This document shows, in pieces, positions 16,780 through 37,790 of a stretch of 64,000 nt of DNA; position 1 is the first letter of the stretch; every line of letters begins with the position of its first letter. The stretch comes from an uncultured Chthonomonadaceae bacterium (GTDB lineage Bacteria > Armatimonadota > Chthonomonadetes > Chthonomonadales > Chthonomonadaceae), in the NCBI GenBank assembly GCA_963835065.1, contig CAWIEK010000054.1, positions 64,001-128,000 on the forward strand. Reading direction: 5' to 3'. A program made the translations under genes and the position numbers. The notes beneath the pieces are model-generated. The model saw nothing but the letters and a program-made list of their open reading frames with translations, did no database searches and was not told the origin of the DNA.

Positions 16780-19700
16780 TTACGCGGCGGGAACTTCCTG
16801 CCCGACTTGGAGCGCCAACTGCTCGGCTAACTCCAGATTGTTGCGGGCTTCCTGATGAGTTGGGTATTGGGCGAGCGCCTGCCGGTAGGATACGACGGCG
16901 GCGGCATAGGCTTCCGTGCGGAAGTAGCAGTTGCCCAGCACGAAGAAGCCGCCCTCCTGTTCGGGGCTGACTTCCAATCCGGCAAGATAGGTTTCCGCCG
17001 CCTTGTCGTACACGCCCAATTGGTACATCAGGTCGCCCGCGTTGAAGTAGGCGTTGCCATACGTCGGGTCGCGCTGAATGGCCTCGGCGTAGTATTCCAG
17101 CGCTTCGCCCGGCGCGTTCAATCCTGCCAGTACGCGCCCCAAATTGACGCGCGCTTCCACCGACTCGGGACGCAGGCGCAGCAGGTTTTCGAACGCGGCG
17201 CGCGCTTCGTCCAGCAGATCGAGCTGTTCGCAGCAGGCCGCCAGTCGCGCCTGCGCCTCGTCATCGTCGGGTTTCTGCCATGCGGTGTGGCGCAGGTGCG
17301 GCAGGGCGCGTTCGTACTCCTTGCCCGCGTAATAGATCATGCCCAAATCGCGGATCGCGTCGTCGTGGGCCGGGCTTTGCGCCAGAACCATTTCCAATTC
17401 TTCACTTGCTTCCCACGTCCGATCCTGCTGCGTCAGGATGATGGCAAGCAGATACCGCGCTTCCACCATATTCGGCTGCTCTTCCAGGACTTCTTGACAG
17501 CACGGAATGGCTTCCACATGCCGATCCTGCCCGACAAGCGCCAGCGCAAGCCCGTACCGCGCCTTGTACGTGGACGCGCCCGCATCCCCGGTCTGCGTAA
17601 AGTGCGTATCGCTTGTTTCTTCGCGCCCTATGTCAATCGCCGCCCGGAACGCCATTTCCGCCGCCTCGTACTGTTCCGTGTGCAGCAGGCAGTAGCCGCG
17701 CGAAAATTCAATGCCCGCCTGCCGGAACCCTTTGGCGTCCGCCATCGCGCACACGTCCAAACCTTCCCAGGGCTGCTGCATCCGGTGCAGGGCGGTGGAC
17801 CATTCGACAAACAGGGTGACGCCGAACTCTTCCTCCTTGCCCACGCCCGGCGCGGCCAGGCTGAAATTGCGCGCGGCGTTGTCCATATCACCGAAGGTAA
17901 AGTAGGCGTTGCCAAGATTGAACAAATGGAAATCCCGGAAACCTTCGTCCGGGCACTCCTCCACTTCCCGCGTCAGCATACGGATAAACCGCTCGTGCTT
18001 GTTGCGCAGCGTCATGATCTCGCCCGCATACCCGAAGTGGTCAATCAGCAGGCCGTCGAACCGCGCATACGTGTAGCCCAACGCCTGCAAGGAGCGCAGG
18101 TTCTGCTCGTGGATACGCCCCTCGAACTTTACGCCATCCACGCGCCGAAACAGGCGGCAGGCATGGTGAACCGCCATTTCGCCGCCCATCTCCTGCCCGG
18201 GTTTGGGCCGCGCCGCGGACGTAAGCCAGTTGTGAAACTTGACCATGTAGCCGCCCACTTCGGCAGGCGCGTTCCGCATGGCCTCGCGGAACAGAGGCCC
18301 GCTCCCCGGCGCAATCTCTTCGTCCGCATCCAGCCACAACACCCAATTGCCTGTCGCGTGTTCCAGCGACAGATTGCGCGCTTCGGCAAAATCGTCGTTC
18401 CATTCATAGGGCACGATCTTCGCGCCATATTCGCGGGCAATGTCCAGCGTCCCATCCGTCGAGCCGGTGTCCACAATCACAACCTCGTCCACAACGTCTT
18501 TCACCGATTCCAGACAGTTACGCAGGAACCGCTCCTCGTTTTTGACGATCATACACAGGGAAAGTGATGAGTGATGAGTGATGAGTGATGAATGGTCCTG
18601 TTCTTCTGTTCCCTGTTCCCTGTTCCCTGTTCCCTTTATCGCTTCTTCCGCCCGCTCATACCGCTCCATCAGGCTGCGATAGGCGGGGGCGCGCTTGACG
18701 GCGGCGCGCTGCCTGTCGGGAACGCCGCGCAGCAGTTTGCGGGCTTTTTGCAGCACGGCGGTTTGGGCGCGCTCCACCGTGCGGCGCAGGTTGGGGTCGT
18801 CGGGCGTGGCCGCAAAGGCGAGAAGCACGTTTTCCAGCGCTTCTTCCGGCTGGCCTTCCGCCAGCAGAATAAAGCCCAGGTTGTGATGAAAGTCACGGGT
18901 ATTAGGCGACGCGGCAATGCCCTGATGCAGCAGTTCCAGAGCGCGCGTTTTATCCCCGTTCGGTAACACGCGGCGGCAAGCGCGTTCACCACGTCCCAAT
19001 CGTCCGCCCGCTCGATCAGGCAGGCATCCAGTTCTTCGACGGCGTTTTTCCAATCGCCGTTACGCGCGGTTTCCAGCGCGGCCTGTTTGCGGTCCTCGTA
19101 CATATCCCCGGCAGCTCGCAGTCCGGGCGTGGCAAAACTTCCCGGCAGGTTCAGCCCGCCCAACCCGGTATTTTGCCACCCCCCGCCCAGGCTCAAACCG
19201 CCCAGACCCATAGGGAGGTTGAGGGTTGAGGGTTGAGGGTTGAGAGGGGAAGACAATGCTGAATGCTGAGTGATGAGTGATGAATGGGATTCTGATTCAT
19301 CATTCATCATTCCGCGTTCAGCACTGATTTTCCCTGTTCCCTGTTCCCTGTTCCCTGTTCCCTCACCCAGCGCGGACAGGCGCTCACCGGCAATCTGCGC
19401 GGCGTGATGCCAGGTATGTTTGGCCGCGATGTCGCGGGCGGCTTGCGCGCCTTTGGCCTGCGCTTCTTCCGGGTGGGCGGCGACGTGGCGGAGCAGTTCG
19501 CTCAGGGCGGCGCGGTCAGGTTCGGCCCAGAACGGATAATCTACCGTCGGCATGTTGCCGACGTTCTTTTCCGCCATGCGCTGCGCTTCGGCGGGGATGA
19601 GATAACTATTCCCGGAGTTAGCGAAATCGAGAGCCGCGCCGAAATCAGTAACGATAGTTGGCTTGCCGCAGGCCATCGCTTCCGCAATCGGCAGGCCGTA

Positions 19701-20615
19701 TCCCTCGCCCCGGTACGGATGTGCCAGGCAGTCACACGCGGCGTACAAACCAGCCAGTTCCGCTTCGCTCATGTCCTCATTGATATATACAATGTGCGCG
19801 CCATTGGGCTTGGCCTGCAATGCCCGAATCAAGGCTCCCGCGCCCTGATTGGCATAAAAGCTGTCCGCGCCGAAGTCCTTGACAATCAGTACAACCGGGT
19901 CCTGCGCCGTAAACGCCCGGTCATAAGCGTCCAGCAGTATATCAATCCCCTTTCGCGCAATCGTGCCGCCAACGAACAGGAACTTATAAAGTTGAGGGTT
20001 GAGAGTTGAGAGTTGAGGGTGATTGTCTGTTCCCTGTTTCCTGTTCCCTATTCCCTCACTAATGCCCGGATGAAACACACCGGTATTGACGCCATTGGGC
20101 ACGACGATGACTTTTTCGCCCGGAACGCCGCTGGTGATATAGGTGTCGCGCACAAATTGGGAGGGAACCCAGATTTCGTCTACGCCGCGCTCAATCGCGC
20201 TGACCCAATGGCGCGGCAGAGAACCGAATTCCCAAGGCTGAATGAGAACCAGCTTGCCGCTTGCTGTGGGCGCAAACTCCGGGGGCCAGCGATGCCGAAC
20301 CGTCACGGCGGGCGCGGACGCGGCCTCGCCCATGCGGGCCGCGAGGGACGCAAAACGCGCTTCGCCGCGCAGGGCAGGCAGGGGCGCGTCGTAGTGTTCC
20401 AGGCGCAGGTCGAAGCGTTCGGCAAAGGCCGGCGTATCGAGCAGCGCCAGCGTGAGTTCGCGATTCACAAGCGCCAGGCTATGCTGCACGAAAAACGCGC
20501 CGTTCCACGCAACGGTTTGCCGCTCCGAATAAGAATGGCTATGGGAATGGATTGCCGGAAACAACGGTTCCGAACCAAAATGCAGGGGCATGGGAAACTC
20601 CTCACGGGAAGACAT
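16780..20615 (-). CDS. multidomain glycosyltransferase GT4 - TPR - GT2 - TPR (one frameshift near 18955)
   Basis: PWEFGSLP, HPYRGEGYGLPIAEAMACG (GT4); LSLCMIVKNEE, IVDTGSTDGT, WLDADE, GRIHEQ (GT2); TPR repeats; missing G in a G-run joins ORFs 18669-20615 and 16780-19053. Confidence 0.85.
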
Positions 20616-20708: not shown

Positions 20709-23292
20709 CTCTTCTATCGTCAAAATCGGCACACAGCGCGCCTGCGCCAGTTCGCGCCAGAAGGGGGGCAATTGGTCGGCGATGAGCGCGTCGGCGACGT
20801 GCAGCAGTTTCCAGCAATCGGTTTGCGGAAGCGGCTGATGCAGCAGGGTGATGTTGGGCAGGCGGTCGGCTGTGATTGCCAGAGTTTGCCGCAGGAATTG
20901 CTCCATTTCCCACAGCAAGGCTTGCGCGTTCGGATGCGTGGCGGGGTCGGCCCGCAGCATCAGCAGAACCGGGTCTGTGGGCGCGTAGGCCAGTGTGAAG
21001 GCGCGTACCAGCGTCTGCCACTCCTCGGCGCGATTCCAGTCCGGCAGGGCCAGCAGACGCTTGATGGCGACGGGCGAACTTACACCGGCCTGCTGTTGCG
21101 GCGCTTCTTCCGCTTGTGGCCCTTCTTCCGCTTGCGGCATAGCCTGCCTCGGAGAAGTTACATCGCCTTGCTGTCGCTGCAATGCCTGCGCCTGACGCCG
21201 TAATGTCTGCGTGGCGGGAATGAGAGGCGCGTATACCGGACAGCCATTCAAAATTGCCAGCCATTCGTCCAGTCCGGTGAGGGCATCATTCGCGCGCTCC
21301 ACGTCCAGGCACAGACGCGCCGATTCTTCTCGCGCCTGCACATGAAACGGCGAAGCCGTCAGGGTTGACCGGTAGGCGGCAAGCGCTTCTTCCACCCGGC
21401 CCAGGGCGCGCAAGGCGCAGGCAAGGGCGTTATGCGCTTCGCCCAATGCAGGCATTTCCGCAACAGCGATTTCGGCATGACGCGCGCTGTCCGCGAACTG
21501 CCCCCGCGCAAACGTGATTTCCGCCAGGGTCAGATGGACTCGGCACGTCAGCAACGCTTGCATCTCAGAGCGCCAAGCCTCGCTTTCGGGCGCGTGTTCG
21601 CCATAAATGCGTTCCAACGCCACATCGAACCATTGAAAACAGCGCGGAAACACGACGCCCTGCAGCTGCCAGGTTGCTAAATAGTTGATAGTTGATAGTT
21701 GATAGTTGATAGGGAGGAGGGAACTATGAACTTTCTGCGTCCCACCGCTTTGTGATTCGGCCTGCAACTGCTCCTGAACTTCCCGCAGAGTGTTCTCGCC
21801 TTCCTCCGTTCTGCCTCCCGCAAAATACAAGTATGCCAGATTGAGCCGGGCCAGTACGTACTCCGGCTCTTCTTGCGCCAGTTGCCGCGCCAGCCCAATC
21901 GCCGCCTGCAATTTTTGCCGCCCATACTGCGGCGATACCGCGCACCGCGCCATCTCCCCGGCAAGTACCGATTTGAAGAGGTTGAGAGTTGAGGGTTGAG
22001 GGTTGAGGGGAACAAGAGTTGATAGTTGATAGTTGATAGTTGATAGGGTATCCTCTCCTGCATGTATCTTGTATCTTGTATCTTGTATCTCTTCCCTTTT
22101 CCCTTTTCCCTTTTCCCTTACCCCTTCTTCCGCCTTACTGTACACGGCGACGTTACAGGTCAGCAGCCAATGCGTGGCGAGCTGAAGGGATTGCTGCGCG
22201 GCGGGCAGGCGGCAGAAGGCGCGCGGAGGAAGCGAACCGGCCCGGCGAGAAGCGACGAATGGCTCCAACCGGTTGAGCAGGTCGGCAAAATGATGCGCGT
22301 AACTGTGCTGTGTGACTCGTTCGCGGCCATTGCGGGCGGTTTGTTCGCGCTCAAATCTGTTTTCGGGCGCGAGGTAATGAGCGAGCAGGTCTTCCAGATT
22401 GCTGTCGTTGTACAAAACGCAATGCTGGAGATCCGCGTACACATCGCGGATTTCGCGGTTTTCGGCTTCGTAGAACATCAATGCGCCGCAGGCCGGGGCC
22501 TCATACGCCCGCATGTTGGCTTCGCCCCGGATGCTGCGGTTGAACACGATTTTGGCGCGGTTCATCAGCCGAACGTACTCATCCCCGTAAACGCCACTGG
22601 TCAGCACAACTTTATAGCGCGTGGATAAAGCCGCCACCCGCGCCAGCCACCGCGCCCGCTCCCATTGTATGGCGTGATTGAAGTTGCCGATCATCAGAAT
22701 GTCTATGTCGCGCTCGATGAAGTCGGTGTTCAGGTATTCGGGTGTTCGGTGTTCAAGGTGTTCGGTATTCGATGTTTGGTATTGGGTGTTTGGTATTGGG
22801 TATTTGGTGTTTGGTGTTTGGTGTTGGGTGTTCGGGTGCAGGAAGGCGGGACGCAGGATTGCGCAGAACGCGGTGCTTGTCTGGTTCGTGCGCCCAGAGC
22901 AGGCTGTGCAGGACGCTGGTAAATCCCATGTCGCGCAAACGCTCACAGCCCACACGATCCGCCACCAGAACGTCGAAGAGGCTGCCTACCGCCCGCATTG
23001 CCTGCCCACCCAGATTCCAATCCCCGAACACGCCCACTGTCAAACAATCGGCGTCTTCCAGTCCGGCGGGAATCGGGTTGTACTCAGGACTCCAGTGGAT
23101 GTATACTTCCGGCATCCAGCCGACAGGGCATTGCGCCAGTACGTCCGTCCACTCCCTATCCGGCGTGACATTCAGATGGGCGTACCCGGCCCCAAACGCC
23201 AGAATGTCATCCCCGGCCTTTTCCCGGCCCGGCAGCGAACGCTTTTCCGCCACTTGCGGCATCTGATTGGTATATCCGACGAGGAGGCGCAT
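20691..23292 (-). CDS. CgeB/Glyco_trans_1_2-type glycosyltransferase with TPR region (frame break within repeat tract 22724-22860)
   Basis: GDWNLG, RDIDILMIGN, KIVFNRSIRGEANMRAYEAPACGAL; TPR-like helices; three heptamer inserts. Confidence 0.78.
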
Positions 23293-23427: not shown

Positions 23428-24770
23428 CTCCTTACTTCTTCTTCAATCCTTGCCGCGACAGGCGCATACGTGAAATGGGTTTCCAGATGGGCGCGGGCGG
23501 CTTCGCCTAAACTTCGGCCTTCCGCGCGGTCTTCAAAGGCGCGGCGCATCAATTGCCGCAGGTGGGCGCAGGACGGCTCCGCCCAACGGTGGCCGCGATA
23601 CGTGGGGGTTTCGCGCCAGGCGGCTTCGGGCACATCCACGACTTCGTACTCCAGAACGTAGCTGTTGGCCGCGTTCATAAATTCCGTTTGGCCGCTCCAG
23701 CCGGTTGCGATCACGGGCAGTCCCATCGCCATCGCTTCCATGTACGGGCGGCCCCAACCCTCGCCCCGCGACGGCATCACGTAGCAATCGGCGGCGCGGT
23801 ACAGATGGGGCATACGCGCATCCGGTACATTCGCGTCCTGCAGGACAATATCGGGAATGTGATTCAGGTCGCCTTTCAAAACTTCGGAGATGTAGGACGC
23901 CATGCAGTCCAGCATCTGCGCCCCCGTATAGCCGAGCGAACTGTGCGTTTTGACAATCAGCGCGACCTCTTCCCCAACCTGAAACTCCTCCACAAACGCC
24001 CGCAGCAGAACGTCCCACCCCTTGCGCAATGTCCAATCGAAGACGGCCAGAAAATTGAAACCGCGCGCGCCATTGATTTGGAGGGGAACGCAACCGGGAT
24101 TGTACGGCGCTAAATCAATTGCGCCCGGAACCACGCGCAGCTTGTCCCGCTCCACGCCCGCGCCCGCAAACGTTTCCACGTTGAACGCGCTCGGAACCCA
24201 CACGGCATCCATCCGGTTACACGCCTGCGCCCAGCCTTCAGGCAGGCGATCCGTTTCAAACATCGTGCGGCCTATGTTGGCGCGGGCGTTAGGGTCGCGC
24301 TCAAATAGGGGCGCAAGAATATGGCAGACGGAAATTCCTCCCCGAAGCGCGGGCTGCCGCATCAACTGCTGCAAAATCCGCTCCCGTTCGGCGGGCAGGA
24401 CAACGGCCTTATCGCTCCAGCGAATCGCCCGCGCCGCCACCTTCACCCCCGCCTGATGCAAGGCAAACAGAAAATGCCGCGCCTCGTCCGCATACCCGCT
24501 TGGATCGCGCAGGGGAGCGCGCCAGGTCAGGGGAAAGGATGAAGGATGAAGGATGAAGGATGAAGAGTCTGTAGCTGATAGTTGATGGTTGATAGTTGAG
24601 CGCATTTCTTCTGTCTTCTGTCTTCTGCCCTTCTTTCCTATGTATCGGAAAGCGCGGCGTGGAAATTTAGCGGTTTGCAACGGCCTGTAAGACTTACCGG
24701 TTTGCAGGCGGTTGTCTTGTGATGTTTCCAGCCTGTCTGAAGCGCGTTTGAATTCTGCCGACAATTCCAC
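23409..24770 (-). CDS. GT4 glycosyltransferase; start may be ATG at 24605
   Basis: DPSGYADEAR, TMFETDRLP, RKGWDVLL, PSRGEGWGRPYMEAMAMGLPVI. Confidence 0.88.
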   Translation of the reverse strand: MELSAEFKRASDRLETSQDNRLQTGKSYRPLQTAKFPRRAFRYIGKKGRRQKTEEMRSTINHQLSATDSSSFILHPSSFPLTWRAPLRDPSGYADEARHFLFALHQAGVKVAARAIRWSDKAVVLPAERERILQQLMRQPALRGGISVCHILAPLFERDPNARANIGRTMFETDRLPEGWAQACNRMDAVWVPSAFNVETFAGAGVERDKLRVVPGAIDLAPYNPGCVPLQINGARGFNFLAVFDWTLRKGWDVLLRAFVEEFQVGEEVALIVKTHSSLGYTGAQMLDCMASYISEVLKGDLNHIPDIVLQDANVPDARMPHLYRAADCYVMPSRGEGWGRPYMEAMAMGLPVIATGWSGQTEFMNAANSYVLEYEVVDVPEAAWRETPTYRGHRWAEPSCAHLRQLMRRAFEDRAEGRSLGEAARAHLETHFTYAPVAARIEEEVRRVVRSE

Positions 24771-30244: not shown

Positions 30245-30472
30245 TCACCACAGAGGCACAGAGACACAGAGGTTTCACAGAGAAATACGAGGGAGAGAAG
30301 AAGATAGAAGATATAAGATATTAGCGGGACTGCCTGCAAGCGTGTTGTCTCCTTGAATAATCCTGTTTAATCCTTCTAATCCCGTTAATCCTGTCTATTT
30401 CTTCTCCTTTTCTCCTTTTTTCTTTTCTTCTTCTCTCTGTGAAACCTCTGTGTCTCTGTGCCTCTGTGGTGA
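30245..30472. repeat. composite palindromic element with 39-bp perfect terminal inverted repeat (CACAGAG type), copy 1
   Basis: TCACCACAGAGGCACAGAGACACAGAGGTTTCACAGAGA at both ends; near-identical to 34473-34684. Confidence 0.95.
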
Positions 30473-31894: not shown

Positions 31895-32638
31895 ATGACC
31901 ACACAAACAGGAAACGAACAAATGGAACGGCCCTGGCGCACGGAATTACTGGTATGCGCGGCGACGTGGATGGAACTGCGGTCATGGTGGCCGCGTGAAG
32001 ACAATCGGGCGCGGTTGGCTGAGGGTGAAATGGCGTACAGCGCCGCGCTGACCTTTGCCGTAACGGGTGTCGGCATCCCCGCGTCGCTGGCGTTTCTCAT
32101 TCGCTTGCTGCAAGAAGCGCGTCCTGCGCGTATATGGAATATCGGCATCGCGGGCGCGTACCCGAACGCCGGTATTAACATTGGCGATATTGTAGTAGGC
32201 ACATCGGAAGTGTATGGCGACATCGGCTTTGAACTGCCCGCTGAACCCGGCTTTCAATCCATCCAAACCTCACCTTTTGCCGGCAAGCTGTACGCGGAAC
32301 CCCTGCTCCTGCAAGTAGAACCGGAATGGGTCGCCCCCCTAACCAACAGCAACGCGCGCTCGTATCAGGTGCACGGGGGCAGGGGATGCACAGTCAACCA
32401 ATGTACAGGTACGCCCGAAACCGGCAACCTGCGCGAACAAATGTTCAATGTCGCGTTTGAAAGCATGGAAGGCGCGGCGATAGCGCAGGCCGGGCAGATG
32501 TTCCACATCCCGGTCAGCGAAATCCGCGCCATCAGCAACATCGCCTCCACCCGCGACATGCAGCCCGACAACATACGCCTTGCCATCGCCAATCTGCGCG
32601 ATTATCTGGAACGAATACCCAAAATCCAACACTCATGA
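31895..32638 (+). CDS. mqnB: futalosine hydrolase
   Basis: AAT..E, TGVG, NIGIAGAY, TVNQCTGT, ESMEGAA, EIRAISN; ATGA-coupled to mqnD. Confidence 0.88.
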   Translation: MTTQTGNEQMERPWRTELLVCAATWMELRSWWPREDNRARLAEGEMAYSAALTFAVTGVGIPASLAFLIRLLQEARPARIWNIGIAGAYPNAGINIGDIVVGTSEVYGDIGFELPAEPGFQSIQTSPFAGKLYAEPLLLQVEPEWVAPLTNSNARSYQVHGGRGCTVNQCTGTPETGNLREQMFNVAFESMEGAAIAQAGQMFHIPVSEIRAISNIASTRDMQPDNIRLAIANLRDYLERIPKIQHS

Positions 32639-33561
32639 CAACCCTTTCTTTAGGTATTTCTCCCTGCCCCAACGACGTTTTCATCTTCAGCGGCATCCTG
32701 CTGAACCAAATTCCCATGAACAACCTGCGCTTCGACGTAGATTTTCAGGACGTGGAAAACTTAAATCAGCAGGCGCAGGCGGGCCGTCTGGATGTGGTAA
32801 AAATCAGCTACGCCAACTACATTCACTGCCGCAACGAGTATGACCTGCTGCCCTGCGGCGGCGCGTTAGGCCGGGGCGTCGGGCCGCTGCTGCTCGTTAA
32901 TGCAGAAGAAAAGGAGAAAAGGAGAAAAGGAGAAAAGGAAACGGAAGAGCAGGGAACAGGGAACAGGGAACAGGGAACAGAAGAGAATGCCCTATCAACT
33001 ATCAACTATCAACTATCAACTCCTGCTTCATCCTTCATCCTTCATCCTTCATCCTTTCCCCTCCTCGTTCCCGGCGTAAATACTACCGCCAATTTTCTGC
33101 TGGATTTTTATGCCAATCCGAACGGAACTACGCCGCTGCAAAAGCGGTTTCTGCCGTTCGATGCGCTCTATGACGAACTGTGCCGGACGCCGGGGGCGCG
33201 GGGCGTGGTGATTCACGAGAAGCGGTTTACGTATGAACAGGACGGCCTGACGCTCATTCAGGACTTGGGCGCGTATTGGGAACAGCAGACCGGGTATGCC
33301 ATTCCGCTTGGGGCAATCTGCGTCCGCAAGTCACTCGACCTGGCTGCTCAACTTACCGATATAATTCAGCGCAGCCTCGCCTGGGCTTACGCGCATTACG
33401 AGCAAGCCTTTGAACTTTGCAAACAATACGCGCAGGATTTAAGCGCGGGCGTGGTCGAATCCCATATCCGGCTGTACGTCAATTCGTATTCCGAAAACCT
33501 GGGCGCGGACGGAGAAGCCGCCGTCCGCTTCTTCCTCGAACAACAAGGCGTCAGGCAGTAG
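32635..33561 (+). CDS. mqnD: 1,4-dihydroxy-6-naphthoate synthase with in-frame repeat insert
   Basis: SPCPND.FIF, DVE.LN, GGALGRG.GP, PG..TTA, VIHE.RFTY, IPLG, HI.LYVN; insert 32908-33056. Confidence 0.93.
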   Translation: MTTLSLGISPCPNDVFIFSGILLNQIPMNNLRFDVDFQDVENLNQQAQAGRLDVVKISYANYIHCRNEYDLLPCGGALGRGVGPLLLVNAEEKEKRRKGEKETEEQGTGNREQGTEENALSTINYQLSTPASSFILHPSSFPLLVPGVNTTANFLLDFYANPNGTTPLQKRFLPFDALYDELCRTPGARGVVIHEKRFTYEQDGLTLIQDLGAYWEQQTGYAIPLGAICVRKSLDLAAQLTDIIQRSLAWAYAHYEQAFELCKQYAQDLSAGVVESHIRLYVNSYSENLGADGEAAVRFFLEQQGVRQ

Positions 33562-33642
33562 GTGTCAGGTGTCAGGTGTCAGGTGTCAGGTATTGGCTTC
33601 TGTCTTCTGCCCTAATACCTGACACCTGACACCTGACACCTA
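33559..33642. repeat. inverted pair of GGTGTCA heptamer arrays between mqnD and larC
   Basis: TAGGTGTCAGG...GGTATT mirrored by AATACC...CCTGACACCTA. Confidence 0.9.
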
Positions 33643-33661
33643 AACTATGCTGGAGGCTGGT

Positions 33662-34472
33662 ATGCGTATCGCTTATTTTGATTGTTTTAGCGGCGTGAGT
33701 GGAGATATGATTTTGGGCGCGCTGCTTCATGCGGGCGTGGACGAGGAGGCTTGGCGGGGTGAACTTGCCAAGCTCAACGTGCCGGGGTATGAACTGCAAA
33801 TCGGCATGGTCGTGAAAGAAGGCATTTCGGGCATGGACGTGGACGTGGTTCTGCATGAGCAGGATCAGGGACACGGGCGGCACATGGCTGACATCGAAGA
33901 AATCCTGCACAAAAGCGGCGTGTCGGAAAACATTCGCTGCCGCGCTTTGGGCGCGTTCACCCGGCTGGCCCACGCCGAAGCCAAAATCCACGCCATGACG
34001 CCCGATACCATCCACTTTCACGAAGTGGGCGCGGTGGACGCTATCGTAGACATTGTGGGCGCGTGTATCGGGCTGGAAATGCTGGGCGTGGAGAAAGTGT
34101 ACGCTTCGCCCCTGCCGTTCAATCGCGGGCTGGGTGGAGTGCGCGCACGGCACAATGCCGGTTCCCGCGCCCGCCACAATGGAACTGCTGGTCGGTTTCC
34201 CCCTGCGTCCCGATGACCGCCCGAAAGAACTGATTACGCCAACCGGCGCATGTCTCTTATCGGAATGGGCCGAACGGACGCCCGACGGCGACATTGCTCC
34301 GCTTCCCGCTTTCGTGCCCCGCGTCATCGGCTACGGCGCGGGCAAGCGCGACTCGTGGATACCCAACTTACTGCGCCTAGTCGTCGGCGACACCTATGAA
34401 GAACCGCTCAAAAAGCCCTACGGCACAAAACGCCCTACAACCGTCCGTCCATTAAAAACAAAACATAAGTAG
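33662..34472 (+). CDS. larC: nickel pincer cofactor biosynthesis protein LarC, N-terminal domain only (frameshift near 34128)
   Basis: YFDCFSGVSGDMILGAL, AEAKIH, HFHEVGAVDAIVDIVG, AHGTMPVPAPAT, ELITPTGA, GYGAG.RD...PNLLR. Confidence 0.88.
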
Positions 34473-34684
34473 TTCACCACAGAGGCACAGAGACACAGAG
34501 GTTTCACAGAGAAATACGAGGGAGAGAAGAAGATAGAAGATATAAGATATTAGCGGGACGTGCTCTGTCTTAATCCTGTTTAATCCTAATCCCGTTAATC
34601 CTGTCTATTTCTTCTCCTTTTCTCCTTTTCTTCTTTTCTTCTTCTCTCTGTGAAACCTCTGTGTCTCTGTGCCTCTGTGGTGAA
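34473..34684. repeat. composite palindromic element (CACAGAG type), copy 2
   Basis: same 39-bp inverted repeats and interior as 30245-30472; differs mainly in the central loop. Confidence 0.95.
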
Positions 34685-34692
34685 TGACTCCG

Positions 34693-36648
34693 CTATTTCA
34701 GGGAGCGGCCGAAGGGAGGAACCAGGCCCTGTTCGACGGCGAGACGGGTGGCTTCCGTGCGGTTGGTGACGTCCAATTTGGTGAACAGGTTGGACAGGTG
34801 GTACTCGACGGTTTTGGGAGCGATGAACAAGGCGGTGGCGATCTCTTTATTGCGCGCCCCCTGCGCCAGAAGCTGCAAAATCTCGCGTTCGCGCTCGTTC
34901 AGGTCGAAACGCCCGTGTCCTGACGCCAGCGCCGCAAGATGATCCGTGACAACCGGAGCCAGCAGGGATTTGCCCCGGTGCGCCGCCTGTATCGCCGCCA
35001 CCAATTCCGTCGCGTTGGTATCTTTCAGCAGAAACCCCCGCGCGCCCAATCCCAACGCTTCCGAAATCGCATGTTCCGTGTGCAGCGTCGTCAAAATCAC
35101 GACAGGAACTTTGGGCTTGCGGATATGCAGCCGCCGCAAGCCTTCCAGTCCGTCCACATCCGGCATCTGCAAGTCCATCAGCACGACATCCGGCTCGATG
35201 AGCAGGGTTTGCTCCACCGCCTGCGCCCCATTCGCCGCTTCCCCGACCACAACGACTTCGGGGCTGGTTTGCAGCATCACCCGTATTCCCTGCCGCGCCA
35301 GCGCATGGTCATCCACAATCAACACTTTAATCGGGTTGAGGGGGGCAGGAGTTGATAGTTGATAGTTGATAGTTGATGGCGCATCCTCTGCTTCTGTCTT
35401 CTGTCTTCTGTCTTCTGTCTTCCCTTCTGTTCCCTGTTCCCTGTTCCCTGTTCCCTGATGAATGGGCGTGGCCGGGCGGTAGGGCAGGGACACGCGCAGT
35501 CGGGTTCCCCAGCCGGGGGTGCTGTCTATGTGCAGCATCGCGCCGACGAGTTGGGCGCGTTCGCGGATACCGAACAGGCCATAGCCGCTTTCGGGACCGG
35601 GAGTACGCTCGGCTTCAGGGTCAAATCCAACGCCGTCATCTTCAATGAGCAGGGTGACTTCCTTTGCGCCATATTGCAGACCGACGCGGATACGCTGCGG
35701 CTGCGCGTGTTTACGGGCGTTGGTCAGGGCTTCCTGCGCGATGCGGAGCAGGGACGCGCGCTGATCGGGCGTCAGCGGCTGTTCCTCACCCGAAAGGATA
35801 AACTGCGTGGCAATACCCAACTCGGTTTCCAGTTGCTCGGCTTCCTGCGCAATCGCCTGCGCGGGCGACAGCGCTTCGGCGGCGGAAGCGGCCAGGCCGC
35901 GCACCGCGCGGCGCGTATCTTCCAGCGCGGTTTTCGCCAGCCCGTGCGCCTGTGTCAGCATCTCTTCAGCCCCGGCAATGTCGGAGCGTCGCAGCGCGAT
36001 GCGCGTGGTTTCGATTTGCAGAATCACGACAACAAGAGCCTGCGCAACGGTATCGTGGATTTCGCGCGCCAAGCGGTTGCGCTCTTCCAGCATGGCGATT
36101 TCGCGCTGCTGTTCAATGCGCTGCGACAGGGCGATTGCCAGCGTTCCCATATCCGCCAGGCTTTGAAAACCTTCCATTTCCTCCGGCGCGAACTCTCGAC
36201 CGGCCTCCGGGTAGACTACAAGCGCGCCGGCAAAGCGCTGCTCATATTGCAGCGTAATCATCAGCAGGCTGGAAATATTTTCGTCCCGGTACAGTTGGCG
36301 CAGTTCGGGGCTGAGTTCGTTATCTTCCTGCACGTTAGGTGCGAAGATGGGCTGCCCGGATGCCTGCGCGCGGCGGAGAATGGGAGACATGGGCACGACC
36401 TGCGTGACCGCGTTGGCGTATTCCAGCGACACATTGCGCAGAGCAATCGGCGCGATACGGCCCTGCTCGTCCCGCAAAAACAGGCCGATGCGCTCCACAT
36501 GCAAATGTCGGGCGATCACCTCGCTGATCAAACGCGCCACTTCCGCCAGGGGCTTGCCTTCCAGAATGGCGGCGGCTACTTCCCGTCCATAAAATTGTGT
36601 CGGCGCATTGGCGTCACATTCCGCAGTTGTCGCTATTCGTGGCTGCAT
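34693..36648 (-). CDS. hybrid GAF - HisKA_3/HATPase kinase - REC - LuxR HTH protein
   Basis: ERNRLAREIHDTVAQ, QEALTNARKHA, DDGVGF, GYGLFGIRER; VDDH, DVVLMDLQMP; LNERE.EIL.LLAQG..NKEIA. Confidence 0.9.
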   Translation of the reverse strand: MQPRIATTAECDANAPTQFYGREVAAAILEGKPLAEVARLISEVIARHLHVERIGLFLRDEQGRIAPIALRNVSLEYANAVTQVVPMSPILRRAQASGQPIFAPNVQEDNELSPELRQLYRDENISSLLMITLQYEQRFAGALVVYPEAGREFAPEEMEGFQSLADMGTLAIALSQRIEQQREIAMLEERNRLAREIHDTVAQALVVVILQIETTRIALRRSDIAGAEEMLTQAHGLAKTALEDTRRAVRGLAASAAEALSPAQAIAQEAEQLETELGIATQFILSGEEQPLTPDQRASLLRIAQEALTNARKHAQPQRIRVGLQYGAKEVTLLIEDDGVGFDPEAERTPGPESGYGLFGIRERAQLVGAMLHIDSTPGWGTRLRVSLPYRPATPIHQGTGNREQGTEGKTEDRRQKTEAEDAPSTINYQLSTPAPLNPIKVLIVDDHALARQGIRVMLQTSPEVVVVGEAANGAQAVEQTLLIEPDVVLMDLQMPDVDGLEGLRRLHIRKPKVPVVILTTLHTEHAISEALGLGARGFLLKDTNATELVAAIQAAHRGKSLLAPVVTDHLAALASGHGRFDLNEREREILQLLAQGARNKEIATALFIAPKTVEYHLSNLFTKLDVTNRTEATRLAVEQGLVPPFGRSLK

Positions 36649-36653
36649 CTTTC

Positions 36654-37790
36654 TCACCACTCCCCTTCCGGCATACTCGCGCATCCCGCTTCGCGCAGTT
36701 CGGCGTTGCCGTCACGCCCGCCTGCCGCTACCCAAACCATGCGCCCCTGTTGATGCGCCCGCAGACATTCCGCCGCCATGCCGCCCCCCGCGCGCACATC
36801 GAGGGCAATAATCAGATCGGCCAGCGCGTACAGCATCCGGTCCCGGCGGCGCAGGTTCGCGCCCAATGCGTGATCGTCCAGCCGAAACGGGGAAAGCGCC
36901 AGATCGCGGGTCGTGTCGAAGACGGTTTCGCGGATGCGGGCGGCGGCGAACGGCGGGCGATCAAAGGCGGGGCCAAGCGCGTCGCGCAGGCCGCGATCCA
37001 GCACGTAAAGCGTCGGGCGATTCTGGCGCTGAGCCGCCAGTGCCACCCGCTTGTACGGCGTCCGGTCATGCCCTGTCACGGGAACGCACCCGCGCCCGAT
37101 GAGAATCGCCGCCATCTCATCCATGCGCTTCATCGTGGCATTATCCGCGCCATTGGAAACCGCAATGCTGAACAGGAACGGCGCGCGGGCGGCTTGGCGG
37201 GGCGCGACAACCGCCGGAACTTGTTCCTGATGTTCGGCATTACCATTGGTATCTGTATTATCGGTGTTTGTTCGGTAAAGTTGAGCCGATGTTTTTACAG
37301 GTTTGCGAGAAGCGGACGCAGACGGCTGTATTGGCTGTGAAGCAGGCTGTGCCGTTGCTTTCGGCACGGCGGGCGCAGTCACTTCGGGGCGAATAGGCGC
37401 AGGCGAAAGCAGGCCGAGATTGCCCAATGCGTACACGATGGGCGGGGGCGCGTCGTCGAAACGCTCCAAACGGTCAGGGTACGCGGGGCTTTGAGGCGTG
37501 AGAACGTGCAGATTGTGCTGCCGGACGGTTCGCGCCAGTTCTTCGGCCTGCGCGCGCAATCGTTCCTGTTGTTCGCACAGCATAGCGGCGGCGCGGGCAT
37601 CGAGTTCGCAGCGGGTTTGCCATTCGTCTGCCGACCATTGCAGGCAGGTTTCGGGGTCAAGGCGGCGCGACGTGAGGTGATGAAGCAGGCGAGTCAGCGT
37701 TTTTTCACCAACGTTCGGGATGCTGTGCAGCAGCAGGGCGAAGCGGGTAAAACCGAGGGGTTCCGTGCTTGTTTTGGGGTCACGGTTCAC
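36654..37790 (-). CDS. DprA/SMF-like protein, divergent, with low-complexity insert
   Basis: IPNVGEKT, YPDRLE.FDDAPPPIVYALGN, RRDRMLYALAD...GG....A..QGR.V. Confidence 0.65.
   Translation of the reverse strand: MNRDPKTSTEPLGFTRFALLLHSIPNVGEKTLTRLLHHLTSRRLDPETCLQWSADEWQTRCELDARAAAMLCEQQERLRAQAEELARTVRQHNLHVLTPQSPAYPDRLERFDDAPPPIVYALGNLGLLSPAPIRPEVTAPAVPKATAQPASQPIQPSASASRKPVKTSAQLYRTNTDNTDTNGNAEHQEQVPAVVAPRQAARAPFLFSIAVSNGADNATMKRMDEMAAILIGRGCVPVTGHDRTPYKRVALAAQRQNRPTLYVLDRGLRDALGPAFDRPPFAAARIRETVFDTTRDLALSPFRLDDHALGANLRRRDRMLYALADLIIALDVRAGGGMAAECLRAHQQGRMVWVAAGGRDGNAELREAGCASMPEGEW

Follow-up and report, generated by a model that had tools for sequence, protein, structure and literature searches.

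A four-arm heptamer and octamer repeat cassette, probably translated, in a loop of MqnD from a Chthonomonadaceae bacterium

Tandem repeats with a heptamer unit, the STRR, were reportedly described in cyanobacteria by Mazel in 1990, and a different element, RPE, is a small repeat fused in frame inside conserved proteins. The available sections of a report on the GGGAATC and GGGGA(C/T)T heptamer arrays of Xanthomonas and Nostoc describe a preference for four units and an arrangement in inverted pairs, with 70-75 close inverted pairs and 7-11% of copies intragenic in Xanthomonas (PMC4692102); regulatory effects of the Nostoc heptamers are reported in the accessible part of a further source (bioRxiv 2022.06.06.494920). 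The TAACTGA arrays of Beggiatoaceae, Cyanobacteria and Bacteroidetes are excluded from genes on the strand that carries the stop, as far as the accessible text on them goes (PMC4679880); in-frame repeat inserts in proteins, RPE, BRE, BOX and RUP among them, have been reviewed (PMC3184786, available in part); and 23S rRNA intervening sequences (IVSs) that bear S23p are, in the excerpt available, excised by RNase III (PMC4990558).

The locus compared here with these systems lies in a window of 64,000 nucleotides, the whole stretch analysed, from the genome of an uncultured Chthonomonadaceae bacterium (G000). The gene mqnB, for futalosine hydrolase (31895..32638, plus strand; TIGR03664 at 131.7 bits, cut-off 124.7; start as placed by our model gene call), ends in an overlap with the start of mqnD that reads ATGA, and mqnD itself (32635..33561, plus strand) is a single open frame of 308 aa. 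An initial annotation had placed four repeat blocks in frame inside MqnD at 32908..33056, and both the blocks and their frame are confirmed: at 32907-33056, on the plus strand, two G-rich left arms, AGAAAAGG x4.1 (32907..32939, read as EKEKRRKGEKE) and CAGGGAA x4.4 (32950..32980, QGTGNREQGT), are followed by two C-rich right arms, CTATCAA x4.3 (32992..33021, LSTINYQLST) and CTTCATC x4.4 (33026..33056, SSFILHPSSF). One arm is thus built of an 8-mer and three of 7-mers, and each is about 30 bp long. The whole cassette is contained in a variable loop, N89-P142 (54 aa; 32899..33060, plus strand), which in typical orthologs has about 10 aa. From GPxxx to PG the segment measures 65 aa here against 20-23 aa in 100 of the 118 measurable homologs (120 listed), which leaves 44 aa (132 bp) as the net insert. 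The annotation's term "insert" needs a correction, in that the CTTCATC arm sits in place of the native motif W/F-D-P-x-x-E: part of the linker has been replaced, not pushed aside.

By sequence and by predicted fold, both of which match TTHA1568 of T. thermophilus, the product is MqnD rather than MqnA. The sequence match (2CZL/3A3U; E 5.9e-53) is broken at query 88/143, so that the alignment to MqnD structures proposed with the annotation splits around the insert, and 2czl is the first-ranked Foldseek match to the model (E 1.4e-26, TM 0.88 by target). The motifs SPCPND, KISYA, PG..TTA and HE, which have roles in MqnD, are retained; the last includes His194 (33214..33216, plus strand), which aligns with His145 of T. 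thermophilus, a residue that we take to be catalytic. Our literature search found no paper on the MqnD mechanism, the role of His145 included. An AlphaFold2 model made from 119 sequences has a mean pLDDT of 88.7, with most of the core above 90 and residues 91-140 at 49-63, the low values in the loop being due in part to the few homologous rows aligned there; the core is modelled confidently and the insert is predicted to be disordered. Compared with G002 and G001, two genomes of the same genus, the flanks of the cassette have dN/dS values of 0.118 and 0.174 respectively, which indicate purifying selection.

The genome has MqnA-like, MqnB and MqnC genes, and an MqnE-like one just below cut-off; in this assembly, which is 92% complete, MenD was not found and MenB fell far below its cut-off. 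Redundancy of mqnD was considered and rejected: two further MqnD-like copies (G000:C36:19986-20663 and C57:146582-147259), near-identical to each other, show neither the PCPND nor the HE motif in the frames that were read, a third family match, on C51, reads as MqnA-like, and no canonical spare copy was found. Each of the C36 and C57 paralogs adjoins an AAA+ ATPase with a TPR-like N-terminus; the two may reflect a duplicated region or be a binding-only protein. Taken together, the dN/dS values, retained motifs, model, pathway genes and motif-less paralogs make mqnD neither obviously dead nor redundant. The annotation had offered two readings of the insert, a tolerated loop or a segment removed at the RNA or protein level, and it is the first that is supported, by a confident core around a low-confidence insert, conserved core residues, dN/dS of 0.12-0.17 and the lack of a canonical spare copy.

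The second reading is not upheld by the cassette itself. Its two left arms and two right arms include none complementary to another, the insert contains no inverted repeat, and as DNA or RNA it folds like its shuffles (RNA fold z -0.03), with -0.21 kcal/mol per nt against a median of -0.52 for true hairpins. A stable hairpin is thereby rejected, and the long complementary RNase III stem arms of rRNA-type IVSs are missing. As to an RNA family or intron, Rfam returned only sub-threshold miRNA-precursor matches, none of them near cut-off. No intein family was detected: PF02621 is the sole Pfam match, and the junctions differ among relatives. Nor does the cassette have the single conserved full-length sequence with terminal inverted repeats that is typical of MITE or RPE; the interiors of its blocks recur hundreds of times in the genome, and most of its junction 16-mers are unique. 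No target-site duplication was seen in alignments with relatives, which are too diverged for this purpose.

The behaviour of cassettes in other genes bears on the same question. In the 760 kb sampled from G001 and G002, a single open frame matches both flanks of 23 cassette sites, and at 22 of these the frame stays open and unshifted across the cassette. The remaining site (G000:C67:51977) is broken at the cassette's last arm and reads as either an assembly indel or true slippage. A strand test was confined to ten unit families with no stop on either strand. In it, blocks inside genes present the hydrophilic rather than the hydrophobic strand by 321 to 18, against 80 to 52 between co-directional genes (Fisher p 1.5e-18, calculated on copies that are not independent). 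The AAGGATG arm occurs as a stop-free CGG variant in 9/9 cases in coding sense, 2/31 intergenic and 0/23 antisense; the stop form is missing from open frames by definition, but the rarity of the CGG variant elsewhere is not. The same stop-variant test with the AATGATG arm gave no matches.

Frame keeping and hydrophilic bias, seen across the genome, count against excision, since removal from RNA would not require either. It is extremely unlikely that the cassette is cut from the mRNA like an rRNA IVS and the ends rejoined to give an MqnD of normal length, even though its arm families bracket genes for the 23S rRNA intervening-sequence protein, its arms retain a hairpin-like polarity and rRNA IVSs are themselves excised by RNase III (PMC4990558, available in part). 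Besides the unpaired arms, the ordinary RNA fold and the absence of a near-cut-off Rfam match, that route leaves rRNA in two fragments, according to the excerpt of the same source, and, since native residues have been replaced, even a clean cut would not bring the ancestral linker back. Removal of the peptide after translation, by intein-like splicing or by clipping of the loop, is highly unlikely: a protease could conceivably clip a long, charged loop that is predicted to be disordered, but these 54 aa are repeat-derived, are wholly different between close relatives and have no conserved junction residues, and the Pfam scan holds no intein. Mismatched arms, the frame kept at 22 of 23 sites and the hydrophilic strand chosen 321 times against 18 all argue for translation and retention, and the MqnD cassette is likely to be translated and to remain in the protein as a floppy surface loop instead of being excised.

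The arms belong to a system that extends over the whole genome. In 8.0 Mb there are 1,330 exact arrays of 7-mers and 123 of 8-mers with at least three copies, compared with 0 and 0 in one shuffle control (1-kb blocks), so the arrays are not due to chance; 698 of the 1,330 heptamer arrays have four copies. Gene calls came from a purpose-built simple model (6,771 genes, 76% of the genome called coding, some genes missed). On these calls the 2,058 blocks make up 1,388 cassettes, of which 855 are intergenic, a mainly intergenic distribution like that of STRR, 252 lie at gene edges or ends and 281 are internal to 240 predicted genes, the last count being likely low because the model misses some genes. 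The annotation's view of the MqnD cassette as the clearest one in a metabolic enzyme thus needs amending: the cassette is real but not special to MqnD, being one of the 281 in-gene cassettes, six of which were called in the window. Hosts, identified from the 40 scanned of 89 multi-block hosts, each of at most 650 aa, include TrpE, ProB, TrmFO, SucB, BirA, RsmB and PepA. Further in-frame cassettes in the window are found at 1955-2018, 18563-18635, 19217-19363, 19990-20056, 21681-21712, 21980-22131, 24535-24627 and 35350-35457, in glycosyltransferase/TPR-like genes and in the kinase-receiver linker of a hybrid sensor. Elsewhere, G000:C63:64455-67097, by its motifs presumably a leucyl-tRNA synthetase, has a two-arm cassette in frame where G001 has a short loop, and at G000:C49:571508-572566 a four-arm cassette forms the linker of a LarC2 domain fused to a MoaB-like domain.

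Common unit families number about 20, besides the 8-mers, and most of them have no G-quadruplex tracts. Up to five arms are stacked in a cassette, and many in-gene cassettes are multi-arm and lie in mid-gene. Each arm is a module of fixed length with defined ends, and the G-arm strictly precedes the C-arm: heptamer blocks of 30-35 bp number 580 against 18 of at least 37 bp; of the 65 long ACTACTG arms 52 measure exactly 33 bp, with fixed end phases; and the step from one block to its neighbour is from G-rich to C-rich in 429 cases and from C-rich to G-rich in 7, or 470 against 5 after relabelling of four G/C-balanced families, a step decided after the data had been seen. Outside called genes 233 of 334 junctions join true inverted pairs (30 expected at random), whereas inside genes 8 of 136 do so, against 3.8 expected from in-gene arm frequencies, so that the choice of strand suffices and genes need not be supposed to avoid true inverted pairs in any further way. 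We propose that selection on the protein is what leaves in-gene cassettes with the polarity of a hairpin and without its complementarity.

True inverted arms are present next to mqnD, in an intergenic cassette between it and larC (33559..33642, plus strand; AGGTGTC / GACACCT, with a 28-bp perfect stem) that is missing in G002. The larC gene (nickel insertion; window 33647-34472) is split by a frameshift near 34125, where G002 is continuous, and the shift reads as either an assembly indel or a broken gene. Further along, a DprA-like gene (window 36654-37790) has a weak, partial profile match and a low-complexity insertion in its middle. Two near-identical palindromic elements of about 200 bp without a gene (window 30249-30468 and 34478-34679) have 8-mer arms, CACAGAGG / CCTCTGTG, and 8-9-mer arms related to these bracket the three GxxExxY genes of the genome. 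Of the 226 intergenic true hairpins of G000, 159 have their end no more than 60 bp from a start codon, in many cases immediately ahead of an AGGAG-like site, and might act in translation or RNA processing; their spacers are unique, with a median of 57 bp, and the 159 spacers show no excess of -10-like motifs that would mark promoters.

The history of the loop was followed in an MqnD tree of G002 and 33 of the 120 listed homologs, made from the flanks only. The annotation had MqnD normally short at this point, which is true of the distant orthologs; the closest clade, of 15 rows (support 97/93), has a longer loop in every row, of 24-65 aa in the proteins, with different arms. The refuting condition named with the annotation, an equally long loop as a common feature of orthologs, is thus half borne out. 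Four members of the clade (P0009, P0010, P0011, P0082) retain the native motif as F-D-x-x-R-E and are lengthened only on the left, by purine-rich sequence, while P0006, P0007, and P0001-P0004 with G002, have a right arm in place of the native motif. G002 shares both outer arms with G000 (AGAAAAGG and CTTCATC, the latter also in P0003) and differs in its inner arm: CAGGGAA, the commonest in-gene arm of G000 (134 on the MqnD-sense strand), is missing from its mqnD site, and a different heptamer takes the position of CTATCAA, an arm that has stops on the opposite strand. These alignments show that, among close relatives, arms were added or exchanged singly. The loop appears generally permissive, as L103 and P0104, two distant homologs, have unrelated, non-repeat insertions of 49-53 aa in it; in a metagenome scan for the closest relatives, none of 39 loci had a repeat cassette there, and one had an unrelated loop of 49 aa.

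In G002 mqnD is one base out of frame, in an A-run inside the first arm. With units of 7 or 8 bases, not multiples of three, slippage by one unit would shift the frame, and such a switch could turn menaquinone synthesis off and on; the G002 shift and the one broken test site fit this idea. We find it very unlikely. The G002 shift is of one base, not one unit, and probably an assembly error, since hisS, mqnB, larC, a sensor kinase and others are also split in that assembly; the arrays are short, near 4-5 units at most; and the hosts are ordinary housekeeping genes. The Xanthomonas and Nostoc heptamers were likewise judged not to be phase-variable in the sections of that report available (PMC4692102).

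Could the insert now be adaptive, its hydrophobic right arm standing in for the packing of W/F-D-P or its loop binding a partner? The native aromatic motif is lost where an F/L/I-containing C-arm appears, on at least two branches, and G000, G002, P0002 and P0003 have in common the tail PSS(F/L)PLLVPG, but P0005 and P0013 have neither the motif nor an arm of this kind, loop length and sequence vary freely, and pLDDT reaches only about 63 over residues 131-140; on this balance adaptation is quite improbable, and a tolerated, neutral loop remains the reading that we prefer.

At 28 of 89 orthologous cassette sites the relative also has its own exact array; at the other 61 it has none. Arrays are very unevenly dense within the genus, with 166 per Mb in this genome, 75 per Mb over the 360 kb taken from G002 and 15 per Mb over the 400 kb from G001, and the CTATCAA array pattern was present in 2 of 42 family genomes searched; G023, of another genus, has families of its own. 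Local origin of each block by polymerase slippage from chance seeds, with no copying of modules, has been proposed for the excess of heptamers in bacteria (PMC4692102, in the portion available) and would agree with the partial arms of relatives. As an account of this genome it is improbable, because independent slippage would not be expected to yield a limited set of shared units, arms of fixed length and end phase, strict polarity, 233 true inverted pairs at 334 junctions outside genes or whole-arm swaps at orthologous sites.

Four-helix-bundle genes carry inverted, arm-like flanks. In this genome each of the three TIGR02436 genes lies between inverted arms, with the G-rich arm upstream and the C-rich arm downstream, and the one on contig C33 is enclosed by the 8-mer of the first MqnD block. 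Among 16 high-ranking matches out of 30 in relatives, arrays within 260 bp lie on both sides of the four-helix-bundle gene in 10, on one side in 5 and on neither in 1, with CAGGGAA and CTTCATC families among them; control stretches of 40 kb held 1 array in G005 and 10 in G023. At one locus (G005:C1:954439-956750) the gene has TGAGGAC/GTCCTCA arrays of 170-250 bp on each side, although arrays are otherwise sparse in the sampled DNA of G005. Four-helix-bundle genes are present in 19 of the 42 family genomes, most of them without the CTATCAA arrays that 2 of 42 possess, so the gene alone does not explain the expansion. Copy number of four-helix-bundle or GxxExxY genes was rejected as its driver, having no relation to it across the 42 genomes. 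The four-helix-bundle cassette could instead be a place to which arms often move, not the place from which they come. Our searches found neither a mobilising enzyme nor a target-site signature for arm movement.

The mechanism that we propose for the locus would run as follows. The MqnD insert would consist of four arms of about 30 bp drawn from a pool, spread across the genome, of cassettes with heptamer and octamer inverted repeats; four-helix-bundle cassettes of the 23S rRNA intervening-sequence type are the likely source that brought the arm families into it. Short-homology recombination or gene conversion would copy arms into existing cassettes or tolerant loops, and selection at the protein level would spare only those combinations that keep the frame, contain no stop and are for the most part hydrophilic. 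The insert would then be translated and kept as a predicted disordered loop, with the enzyme left working. The parts of this scheme differ in strength. That an arm stack from the genome-wide pool lies in frame, is likely translated and is kept as a disordered loop in a working enzyme is, we believe, probable, at close to three chances in four; short-homology copying of modules from a pool seeded by four-helix-bundle cassettes is the likeliest route, with about an even chance of being correct. The translated neutral loop is accordingly much firmer than the arm-copying route. A bolder version, rather unlikely in our estimation, would have the four-helix-bundle arms actively mobilised as 30-bp modules by a dedicated, undescribed mechanism that builds polar stacks, an escaped combinatorial loop-writing system that has placed ten-residue words in hundreds of proteins and replaced the MqnD linker.

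Taken alone, the MqnD insert is ordinary, a neutral loop at a tolerant place. As a class, the cassettes indicate that hundreds of proteins of one bacterium, housekeeping enzymes included, can each hold 10-60 additional residues, and they map the loops that tolerate them. The rules they follow (arm length, polarity, pairing inside and outside genes, four-helix-bundle arms) narrow the question of how bacterial heptamers originate and make it testable. In practice such inserts split profile matches and can mislead annotation, as in MqnD, which has no NCBIfam match at E 0.001 and is matched by PF02621 in two separate stretches. The initial annotation, made from one stretch of DNA, missed the genome-wide arm system and its link to four-helix-bundle gene cassettes.

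A literature search in which subscription journals were thinly covered returned no polar multi-arm in-frame cassettes and no four-helix-bundle link, and Elhai 2008 may overlap with what is described here. Against the nearest systems, as the available portions of the sources depict them, likenesses and differences are as follows. With S23p (TIGR02436) rRNA IVSs the MqnD-cassette families have the same protein family between their arms, but the MqnD cassette itself lies in mRNA and has no ORF of its own and no complementary arms, and its excision is not indicated. The stem-loop P6b of the Nostoc trnL intron is a hairpin of complementary heptamer arms in which one repeat class has repeatedly given way to another at a fixed site, as here; it is structured RNA and its pairing is kept, whereas in MqnD the pairing is lost and the frame kept (PMC4476775). 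Like RPE, BRE, BOX and RUP, the cassettes are small in-frame repeats that add tens of residues to conserved proteins (PMC3184786), but those are copies of one element, and each insert here is a unique mosaic of arms with unique junctions. The TAACTGA system is of one unit family, has reverse repeats in only 11 ORFs, for the most part at an end of the protein, and is not described as forming compound cassettes in the sections available (PMC4679880). Closest are the heptamers of Xanthomonas and Nostoc, which have in common with these arrays their 7-base units, about four copies, dispersal over the chromosome, close inverted pairs, a minority in genes and fast change between relatives; the present genome differs from them in its approximately 20 families and additional 8-mers, its stacked polar arms and its 281 in-gene cassettes. 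The MqnD insert is thus a good example of a lineage-wide, arm-built and extreme form of the bacterial heptamer repeats.
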